Below are positions 49,316 through 50,581 of a stretch of DNA of 64,000 nucleotides, piece after piece. A program made the position numbers and the translations under genes. Every line of letters begins with the position of its first letter. Within the stretch, counting starts at the first letter, position 1. Under the pieces are notes generated by a model. It saw only the letters and a program-made list of their open reading frames with translations. It was not told the DNA's origin and did no database searches. This DNA is from a virus: positions 23,877 through 87,876 of IMG/VR virus record IMGVR_UViG_3300032294_001352, one strand, 5' to 3'.

Positions 49316-50581
49316 GTGGATATGTCTGACAAAGATAAGCCAACTGCCGCAATGAAGCACTGGGAAAACAGGATCGTAGAGTACGCAGAAGAATCACCAG
49401 AGCAACTGTTGGCCAATCCTCAGAACTGGCGCGTGCATGGTCGTGCGCAGCAGGTTGCACTCTCCGGTGTGCTTGATGATATTGGCTTCATTGCACCAGT
49501 CATTGTAAACAAGCAGACTGGTCATCTCGTAGACGGCCACTTGCGTGTGTCGCTCGCACTGCGGCATAACATACCGTCAATCCCAGTGGTGTACGTTGAC
49601 ATTACGGAGAGTGAAGAGCGTGAGGCACTCACGACGTTTGATCCCATTGGGGCTATGGCCTCATCTGACATGAAAATGCTTGAAGGCCTTATTCAAGACT
49701 TGGATAATCTAAGTGATGCCGCACGTCTATCGCTTACGGACATTGTGAACGAGGCCAACCGGAAAGCCATCAAGCAGGTGCTTGAACCGTCACTTGATCC
49801 TATGGCTGGCTATCAGGGAACGGATGGCACACCAGATATGCTCAATGAGGCCGTCTTACCGAGATCAAGCGGCAATGTAGAGATGATGGATGAGTTGGAA
49901 GAGTTGAATGACCGAGAGAGCATGGCCACGCTGCTTGGTGATGATATTCTGAACAACTACACGGAAGATGGGAAAAAGATCTATCCGGCCATGATGTCAG
50001 ACAATGAGTGGGGTGTGCCTACGCTCAACCTGCTGTATCAACTGCGGCGCCCACCGGTGATGATGGAACGATGGGGAAGAGTATCACGTCACAACACGCG
50101 AATGCCTGGTCTGTGGCACTTCTACACAGAGGATTACCGATTCAGTACTGTCTGGAAGAATCCGGATATGGTCGTCAAAACCGGCTGTACCAGTGCCATT
50201 GAACCAAACTTCAGTACCGGTACAAACTTTGCCAAAGCCGAAGTACTCTACAACGTCTGGCAGAAGCGTTGGCTTGCCGCATATTGGCAAACGCATGGCA
50301 TTGAGATAGTGGTGGACTTGAACGTGGAAAACAAGTTCAAAGACATCGCCATGATCGGTGTGCCACACGGCTGGCGCGCCTATGCTATCCGTCTGCATGA
50401 GGCTGAGGGATATGGCCTAGACTCCGTGCTTGAATGGGAAGACGCAGCCAAAGAGCGTGCTGGTACCAGTGATATTCTATTCATGGTCTTTGCAACCAAA
50501 TCCAAAGGCGTAGATGAGTTATGCCGCAAGTACGGCTGGATTAACTGCAAGATGGATGCACATATCATGGGGAAAGTATGA
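49316..50581 (+). CDS. ParB/Srx-N fused to DUF4417
   Basis: LLANPQNWRVH...LVDGHLR; C-terminal HFYTEDYRF..VWKNPD...PNFS...RWLAAYWQ..GI...GVP. Confidence 0.8.
   Translation: MDMSDKDKPTAAMKHWENRIVEYAEESPEQLLANPQNWRVHGRAQQVALSGVLDDIGFIAPVIVNKQTGHLVDGHLRVSLALRHNIPSIPVVYVDITESEEREALTTFDPIGAMASSDMKMLEGLIQDLDNLSDAARLSLTDIVNEANRKAIKQVLEPSLDPMAGYQGTDGTPDMLNEAVLPRSSGNVEMMDELEELNDRESMATLLGDDILNNYTEDGKKIYPAMMSDNEWGVPTLNLLYQLRRPPVMMERWGRVSRHNTRMPGLWHFYTEDYRFSTVWKNPDMVVKTGCTSAIEPNFSTGTNFAKAEVLYNVWQKRWLAAYWQTHGIEIVVDLNVENKFKDIAMIGVPHGWRAYAIRLHEAEGYGLDSVLEWEDAAKERAGTSDILFMVFATKSKGVDELCRKYGWINCKMDAHIMGKV

Follow-up and report, generated by a model that had tools for sequence, protein, structure and literature searches.

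Immediately upstream of the large terminase gene, terL, the virus recorded in IMG/VR as IMGVR_UViG_3300032294_001352 carries a gene whose product joins a ParB/Srx-type N-terminal domain to a DUF4417 domain. The question raised by this locus is what such a protein does for the phage, and why its gene lies where the packaging genes begin. The analysed window, a stretch of 64,000 nucleotides whose own numbering is used for coordinates below, comprises bases 23,877-87,876 of an 87,876-bp record that ends in 123-bp direct terminal repeats. Comparison with other phages links DUF4417 genes to a short, Gly- and Arg-rich N-terminal tag shared by otherwise unrelated neighbouring proteins. The fusion of ParB and DUF4417 is already in print; what is new here is the pairing of enzyme and tag, for which no published account was found in literature searches. 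This association suggests a tag-directed enzyme that would handle cargo proteins at the phage DNA in step with packaging, a reading to which a probability of about one half is assigned.

DUF4417 genes are often followed by tagged genes

DUF4417 is a large family, with 7630 cluster representatives at E <= 0.001. A total of 165 loci (individual loci bear L numbers) were fetched, of which 157 contained DUF4417 and 109 remained after dereplication at 90% identity. Across these 109 loci, the open reading frame (ORF) next after DUF4417 very frequently starts with the consensus M-[GA]-[KR]-x-x-GGGG-R-GG. A protein was scored as tagged when residue 2 was Gly, Ala, Pro or Ser and residues 2-16 held at least four Gly and at least one Arg or Lys, a criterion that misses basic variants such as MPERKSKK and MAPRKTRK, which are likewise duplicated in tandem. 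A tagged ORF starts between -60 and +450 nt from the DUF4417 stop in 49 of the 100 loci with at least 400 nt of downstream sequence, compared with 2.6 expected from the background rate (72 of 4329 ORFs). Control windows of equal size placed 2-6 kb away contain a tagged ORF in only 1-2 of 37-49 cases. Of 51 loci, 39 have their first tagged ORF overlapping or abutting the DUF4417 stop (mode -7), and tandem arrays are found, with at least two tagged ORFs in 12 loci and at least three in 4.

The association also holds in the reverse direction. A degenerate DNA pattern for MAKxxGGxGRxG, chosen independently of DUF4417, was scanned over IMG/VR and returned 37 loci, 22 of which were usable: Arg stands at the Arg/Ser position of the pattern, the ORF is 50 aa or longer, and the upstream DNA suffices. 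Of the 15 loci set aside, 10 have Ser for Arg, 3 rest on ORFs that are short and spurious, and 3 lack sufficient upstream sequence, one locus being counted twice. DUF4417 stands directly upstream of the tagged ORF in 20 of the 22, elsewhere on the contig in one and nowhere on it in one, and the DUF4417 genes end between -13 and +154 nt from the start of the tagged ORF. A second pattern, MGRxxGGGGRG, gave 14 matches, of which 5 adjoin DUF4417; in a family of three, DUF4417 lies 4.8 kb upstream wherever the flank is long enough to show it, and the remainder are GC-rich noise or contig ends.

Cultured phages show the same arrangement. In Mycobacterium phage Faith1, gp116 starts with MGGRGGGGGG and follows the DUF4417 protein gp115; in phage Versailles, the ORF behind ParB-DUF4417 starts with MGRNSSGTRGG; and gp35 of Javan174 starts with MGGRGAKIGR. 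MGRN-type tags also stand directly behind DUF4417 in L034, L004 and L048. The sequence-only reading of this DNA had stated that DUF4417 genes are often followed by MGGRG-like ORFs and had proposed profiling the two against each other; the statement proves correct in both directions, with controls, and in cultured phages.

What the tagged proteins share is the tag itself. The 76 tagged proteins have no common Pfam or PHROG family, and their bodies are diverse and often Arg-rich, some with HExxH-type motifs. Over 12 residues, tags are 77% identical within genomes (50 pairs) and 43% identical between genomes (2800 pairs). A link between DUF4417 and the Gly/Arg N-terminal tag is thus supported from both sides. 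The arrangement points to a widespread two-part phage module, in which a DUF4417 gene would be joined, usually by translational coupling, to one or several ORFs whose only common feature is the tag.

Some individual tagged proteins are of separate interest. Zinc-protease motifs of the HExxH type (HELAH, HELGH, HELNH) occur in tagged ORFs beside DUF4417 in L084, which is Bacteroides phage Versailles (5574-6179), in L055 (10646-11272) and in L034 (12602-13480). The tagged ORF at 10468-10809 of L063, MGRGSGAGGGGGGGRG, has a ParB-like body with the motif DGQHRLQAA. A match to a PHROG ParB-like family came from one of the tagged proteins, perhaps this one.

Architecture of the ParB-DUF4417 protein

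In the window, an ORF extends over 49316-50581 on the plus strand and would yield 421 aa from its GTG start. The ATG at 49322, with AGGAG 5 nt before it, is the likelier start; it gives a protein of 419 aa, two codons shorter, that is identical to database protein P0001. The gene and its parts are as follows.

49322-50581, plus strand: ParB-DUF4417 gene (ORF call; AGGAG before ATG 49322; identical to P0001)
49343-49720, plus strand: ParB/Srx-type N-terminal domain, about residues 10-135, with a DGHLR (GxxR) P-motif (PHROG ParB-like families; profile matches to ParB/Spo0J in PDB; alignment motif)
49721-49990, plus strand: acidic, poorly conserved linker, about residues 136-225 (gappy, unconserved alignment columns)
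49991-50578, plus strand: DUF4417 domain, about residues 226-421 (Pfam PF14386, E 7.1e-21; invariant columns)

The Pfam DUF4417 match (PF14386) covers residues 228-353 with 74.9 bits against a cut-off of 28.9 and is likewise recovered by a profile search of the whole genome. All residues that are invariant in two family alignments (FYxxD, EPNFS, KR, Q, VDLN and GVP) are retained in the window domain. The N-terminal domain matches the PHROG ParB-like families phrog_620 (2.5e-12), phrog_8071 (5e-9) and phrog_498 (4.3e-16), and the profile of its family matches solved ParB/Spo0J chains (4umk, 7.8e-6; 6sdk, 1.9e-5); the single window sequence did not reach E 0.01 against Pfam ParB_N. In PADLOC only the ParB part was matched, to a type II methylase model, and NCBIfam gave no match. 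The architecture read from the sequence at the outset, a ParB/Srx-N domain fused to a DUF4417-like domain, is therefore confirmed by family and structure profiles.

Kaljevic et al. (10.1101/2025.10.10.680097) list ParB-DUF4417 among ParB-fold fusions enriched in phages and prophages. The available parts of that preprint give it no function and make no mention of tagged neighbours. The GxxR P-motif that they describe for ParB-CTPase-fold fusions is present in the window protein, in the alignment, as DGHLR. In two other papers DUF4417 appears only as a gene-table entry. Cultured phages have no full-length close homologue, as none of 445 records covers at least 80% of the query, and megablast of the region against them found no match.

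A second ParB-N protein is encoded in the window at 35570-36574 on the plus strand (334 aa; phrog_8071, 1.9e-18), right behind the phage DnaN sliding clamp (34462-35562). Its N-terminal domain is 42-44% identical to that of ParB-DUF4417 relatives.

Position before the terminase

The gene lies between a Mom-like gene and the packaging genes. The Mom-like gene (48642-49313; PF25680, 1.1e-40) ends 8 nt before the start of ParB-DUF4417, whose stop overlaps the start of terL in an ATGA, and the portal gene (51909-54023) comes after terL.

50578-51912, plus strand: terL, its start overlapping the ParB-DUF4417 stop (ATGA; Terminase_6N 6.6e-12, phrog_2 3.9e-43)

Both placements noted in the sequence-only reading, the translational coupling to terL and the position behind the Mom-like gene, are thus accurate, and the packaging link that it drew is supported by conservation. 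In the closest relative, L086, ParB-DUF4417 is 68% identical, TerL and portal are 75-77% identical, and the ATGA overlap is kept. In L087 and L002, whose protein is 53% identical, two ORFs of unknown function lie between ParB-DUF4417 and terL.

In the wider sample, 43 dereplicated loci offered 4.5 kb or more of downstream sequence, and in 32 of them a large ORF (350 aa or longer) on the same strand lies within 4 kb. Terminase_6N was matched by 14 of these 32 large ORFs and Terminase_3 by 8; the tallies were made per family, so that the true total is 14 to 23. Where phage genomes are annotated, the DUF4417 gene has recombination genes (RusA or a resolvase) on one side and terS/terL on the other, except in Mic1, where it belongs to a replication module. 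DUF4417 is found just upstream of terL in about half of the loci, and the window gene shares this position. Here, terL fills the slot that the first tagged ORF holds in other phages.

Tagged genes of the phage and its relatives

Thirteen ORFs starting with MGRNR are scattered over the 87,876-bp genome, alongside a single ParB-DUF4417 gene. Several unrelated proteins of one genome thus share an M-G-[KR] tag, as in the module described above; the consensus in this phage is MGRNR[KR]K.G.GA. Seven of the 13 lie in the window, each recognised by its N-terminal start.

22493-22951, plus strand: MGRNR-tagged ORF, 152 aa
23864-24691, plus strand: MGRNR-tagged ORF, 275 aa
24695-25816, plus strand: MGRNR-tagged ORF, 373 aa, with a database homologue
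25820-26893, plus strand: MGRNR-tagged ORF, 357 aa
44078-45130, minus strand: MGRNR-tagged ORF, 350 aa
58268-58996, minus strand: MGRNR-tagged ORF, 242 aa
59168-60334, minus strand: MGRNR-tagged ORF, 388 aa

This tag can be regarded as a poly-Gly-poor variant of the same class, since MGRN-type tags directly follow DUF4417 in L034, L004, L048 and Versailles. A pattern scan of IMG/VR for MGRNRKK.G was uninformative, with 8 matches, none near DUF4417 and most of them short spurious ORFs.

The protein of 24695-25816 is 41% identical overall to its sole database homologue and keeps 23 of the first 27 residues. In L086 another tag, MGTRTYSRRGVLT, is common to at least two ORFs. The three tagged paralogues encoded over 23864-26893 (plus strand) share the body motifs VWPKLGY.F and YG.(Q/R)KG with the protein of L086 at 13173-14099, a homologue with the same body and a different tag, MGTRTYSRRGV. 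Since the same body bears different tags in the two phages, tag and body are exchangeable.

PDB searches with two cargo proteins of the window returned nothing meaningful. The tagged ORF at 44078-45130 (minus strand) contains HNHPDVVTFSPAD, a motif of the form HNHP...SxxD that presumably resembles that of RadC/JAB metalloproteases; Pfam, PHROG and PDB sequence searches gave this assignment no support. A two-domain lysin (26918-28072, plus strand), with Amidase_2 and Glucosaminidase domains, lies directly behind the cluster of four tagged genes.

A proposed tag-directed enzyme coupled to packaging

A tag-directed enzyme that handles cargo at the DNA, in step with packaging, best explains the observations, at the even odds given above. 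These are the fusion of the two domains, the translational coupling to terL, the co-occurrence of DUF4417 and tag in both directions, the uniformity of tags within genomes and the frequent position before the terminase. Action on the tag, involvement of DNA and packaging of the cargo are three separate steps that we infer. In the first, DUF4417 would bind or chemically modify the N-terminus of tagged proteins, the target probably being Gly2, exposed after removal of Met. The ParB/Srx-type, putatively NTP-binding domain would place the enzyme on phage DNA. Action would fall late in infection, together with packaging, and the cargo would enter the capsid along with the DNA.

Several observations weigh against this proposal. 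By the criterion used, which was itself written after the pattern had been noticed, a tagged ORF is missing from about half of the loci, and the loci were collected with a query biased toward ParB fusions. The terminase count may be as low as 14 of 32. Mic1 has no tagged ORF beside its DUF4417, and the ORF behind A25_22, a protein not confirmed as DUF4417, is untagged. In the phage itself, no tagged ORF adjoins ParB-DUF4417, the nearest lying at least 4.2 kb away, and the tag has no poly-Gly run. ParB is not obligatory, as none was seen in 46 of 109 DUF4417 loci. DUF4417 fusions were among 50 proteins picked for an NTP-binding assay, and the available text names none of them among the 11 binders (10.1101/2025.10.10.680097).

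Alternative explanations

The explanation that fares best among the alternatives keeps the tag and dispenses with DNA and packaging. On this view DUF4417 would mature tagged toxin-like effectors as a protease, act as their chaperone or activate them, and ParB would be only a regulatory NTP switch. The same two-way co-occurrence fits this scheme, as do the many DUF4417 proteins that lack ParB, the location of the Mic1 gene within a replication module and away from the terminase, and the HExxH-type motifs of some cargo. The domains joined to DUF4417 speak against it. ParB-N is fused to DUF4417 in 59 of 109 loci (in a sample biased by the fused query), and every alternative N-terminal partner is DNA-binding or DNA-modifying: a helix-turn-helix or zinc ribbon in the per-member Pfam scan and, once, an N6/N4 DNA methylase (P0133). 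The position before the terminase also recurs in roughly half of the loci, and tag handling away from DNA is accordingly considered unlikely.

A different possibility is that the protein modifies bases of phage DNA or processes that DNA before packaging, like the ParB-methyltransferase fusions of phages, with the tagged ORFs as mere passengers. The N-termini of ParB-N6/N4 methylases share 47-61% identity with its ParB domain, the P0133 fusion points the same way, and the window has genes for several DNA-modifying functions: the Mom-like protein, a C5-methylase (54108-55757, minus strand), a dCTP deaminase (45957-46532, minus strand) and a TET-associated glycosyltransferase, TAGT (33128-34465, plus strand; PF20691, E 2e-38). 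PHROG and RefSeq further label the family 'nuclease', which is not taken as independent evidence because the label probably derives from an old name of the ParB domain. This possibility leaves the tight, translationally coupled, two-way association with the tag unexplained, and homologues of Mom and TAGT occur in 0 of 109 DUF4417 loci; the idea is judged quite improbable. The Mom-like gene is missing from L086 too. It is therefore regarded as an incidental neighbour, and the suggestion that it is a partner of ParB-DUF4417 is rejected.

The modification genes form a subject of their own. Together, the TAGT, C5-methylase, dCTP deaminase and Mom-like genes suggest a DNA hypermodification toolkit. 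Tet_JBP has no match anywhere in the genome despite the TAGT gene, and no literature joining TAGT, ParB and phage was found. A replication and recombination block (31127-33279, plus strand) with a Rad52-like protein, a winged-helix protein and an IstB/DnaC-like ATPase lies upstream of the TAGT gene.

ParB-DUF4417 might instead be a packaging accessory that replaces the small terminase, its ParB domain recognising phage DNA and passing it to TerL. The overlap of its stop with the terL start (ATGA), in this phage and in L086, would suit such a role, as would the direct terminal repeats of the genome and the failure to find a TerS family either in four small upstream ORFs tested or among the Pfam and PHROG matches of the ParB-DUF4417 ORF. 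Other carriers, by contrast, annotate a separate small terminase between DUF4417 and terL or have room for one, the 53% identical relative has two ORFs inserted before terL, and neither the conserved enzyme-like residues nor the tag association would be explained. A small-terminase substitute is therefore very unlikely.

The sequence-only reading had gone further and proposed that tagged effectors are coupled covalently to DNA at the word TGCSGCA. The word itself is real. It occurs 156 times in the window, compared with 15.5 +/- 4.1 in shuffles, and 195 times in the whole genome against 22 expected (8.9x), where it coexists with 13 tagged genes and one ParB-DUF4417 gene. L086 has 14 copies against 2.8 expected; L087, a 53% relative, has 0 against 1.3. 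Only 4 of 80 IMG/VR loci are enriched at least 3-fold, each on counts of 3-8, and the tag-rich loci L034, L025 and L004 have neither TGCSGCA enrichment nor any comparable over-represented word. As the motif, enriched only in this phage and L086, does not track DUF4417, and as no sequence-specific DNA-binding domain lies between ParB-N and DUF4417, coupling at TGCSGCA is extremely improbable and the motif is rejected as an attachment site. Of that earlier model, the pairing of DUF4417 with the tag and the link to packaging stand; TGCSGCA and the expected co-variation of over-represented words with DUF4417 do not.

The centre of TGCSGCA (C or G) flips in blocks that mostly match gene orientation, for example with TGCCGCA over 15372-22372 and TGCGGCA over 22534-37695. 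The word contains GCSGC and might be a target of the hypermodification toolkit.

Fold of DUF4417 and comparison with known systems

The sequence-only reading had suggested that DUF4417 may be a TIM barrel related to tRNA-guanine transglycosylases (TGT). Sequence comparison gives no sign of that kinship. Pfam TGT has no match in the genome at E 0.1; the DUF4417 profile matches no TGT, DpdA or Cap10 chain in PDB at E 10, its best matches being chance-level ones to methionine aminopeptidase (E 0.95); and hhalign of DUF4417 against an alignment of eight bacterial TGT sequences gave a probability of 0.1%. The ESM Atlas contains no model and returned DUF4417 clusters only and nothing once these were excluded, and the per-member Pfam scan at E 10 found no recurrent second family inside the domain. 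The Cys and His columns of the TGT zinc site (CxCxxC...H) are invariant in the TGT alignment, whereas DUF4417 has no invariant Cys or His; this difference is not decisive, because Cap10 lacks the site as well (10.1101/2025.04.06.647259). Inspection by eye suggests about eight hydrophobic, strand-like segments in DUF4417, several of which end in conserved acidic or polar residues, and for this reason a compact barrel is possible.

Head-packaged effectors are known from other phages, among them the T4 internal proteins, which have an N-terminal capsid-targeting sequence, and the MuF-fused polymorphic toxins. In these, too, a short or modular N-terminal element is common to otherwise unrelated proteins, and there it marks cargo that is delivered with the DNA. 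They differ in that they need no dedicated enzyme gene and that the tag is another one, and the packaging of tagged proteins is in the present case a proposal.

The closest parallel for an enzyme that handles such a tag comes from type IV CBASS. There, the CD-NTase CdnD bears an M(G/S)G(G/S)GG extension, from which Met1 is removed and of which Gly2 is conjugated to 7-amido-7-deazaguanine; the TGT-family protein Cap10 holds the CD-NTase N-terminus, poised for a proposed transfer to an unknown target (Wassarman et al., 10.1101/2025.04.06.647259). In both cases, a short Gly-rich N-terminus is, or in the phage would be, handled by a dedicated neighbouring enzyme, the conjugation in CBASS taking place at the free amine of Gly2. 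The differences are considerable: the phage genome has no match to QueC-like Cap9, Pfam TGT or FolE (GTP cyclohydrolase I), DUF4417 has no sequence similarity to TGT, many unrelated cargo proteins take the place of one CD-NTase, the tag contains Arg or Lys, and the context is phage packaging rather than host defence. A supply of 7-deazaguanine may come from the host.

A second parallel is the Dpd system, whose TGT-like enzyme DpdA requires the ParB-fold ATPase DpdB for its action on DNA (PMC10164549). A ParB-fold domain with a DGxxR motif (DGQQR in DpdB, DGHLR here) is combined in both with an enzyme that acts, or here would act, on DNA, the two parts being fused in the window protein. DpdA is a recognisable TGT homologue, whereas the sequence of DUF4417 shows no such relationship; genes of the preQ0 pathway are absent from the phage, and Dpd involves no tagged proteins. 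By analogy, the window protein looks like a fusion of the Cap9/Cap10 and DpdA/DpdB ideas.

Taken to its furthest form, this analogy would make DUF4417 a transglycosylase-like enzyme that joins the N-terminal Gly of tagged effectors to a nucleobase or to phage DNA; a ParB clamp would load it, and the terminase would package the DNA-tethered cargo for injection with the genome. Such a specific version of the proposed cargo-handling enzyme is quite improbable, and covalent coupling to DNA and co-injection are speculation. If it were true, phages would have their own equivalent of CBASS deazaguanylation, which in the present one would serve 13 different cargo proteins.

Implications for phage biology

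The phage is a notable variant of the arrangement: its 13 tagged genes are dispersed, its tag is poor in poly-Gly, and terL takes the coupled slot. Should DUF4417 act on the tag, phages would possess a general address-label system, in which one enzyme serves many swappable effectors and its gene is wired to the packaging genes. This would give a role to a very large family of unknown function and would provide a handle on which phage proteins travel with the DNA. It could also extend N-terminal conjugation of glycine to a nucleobase from host defence to phages. With its 13 tagged genes, the phage of this window represents an extreme case, and the cultured carriers Faith1 and Versailles allow the proposed system to be studied at the bench.

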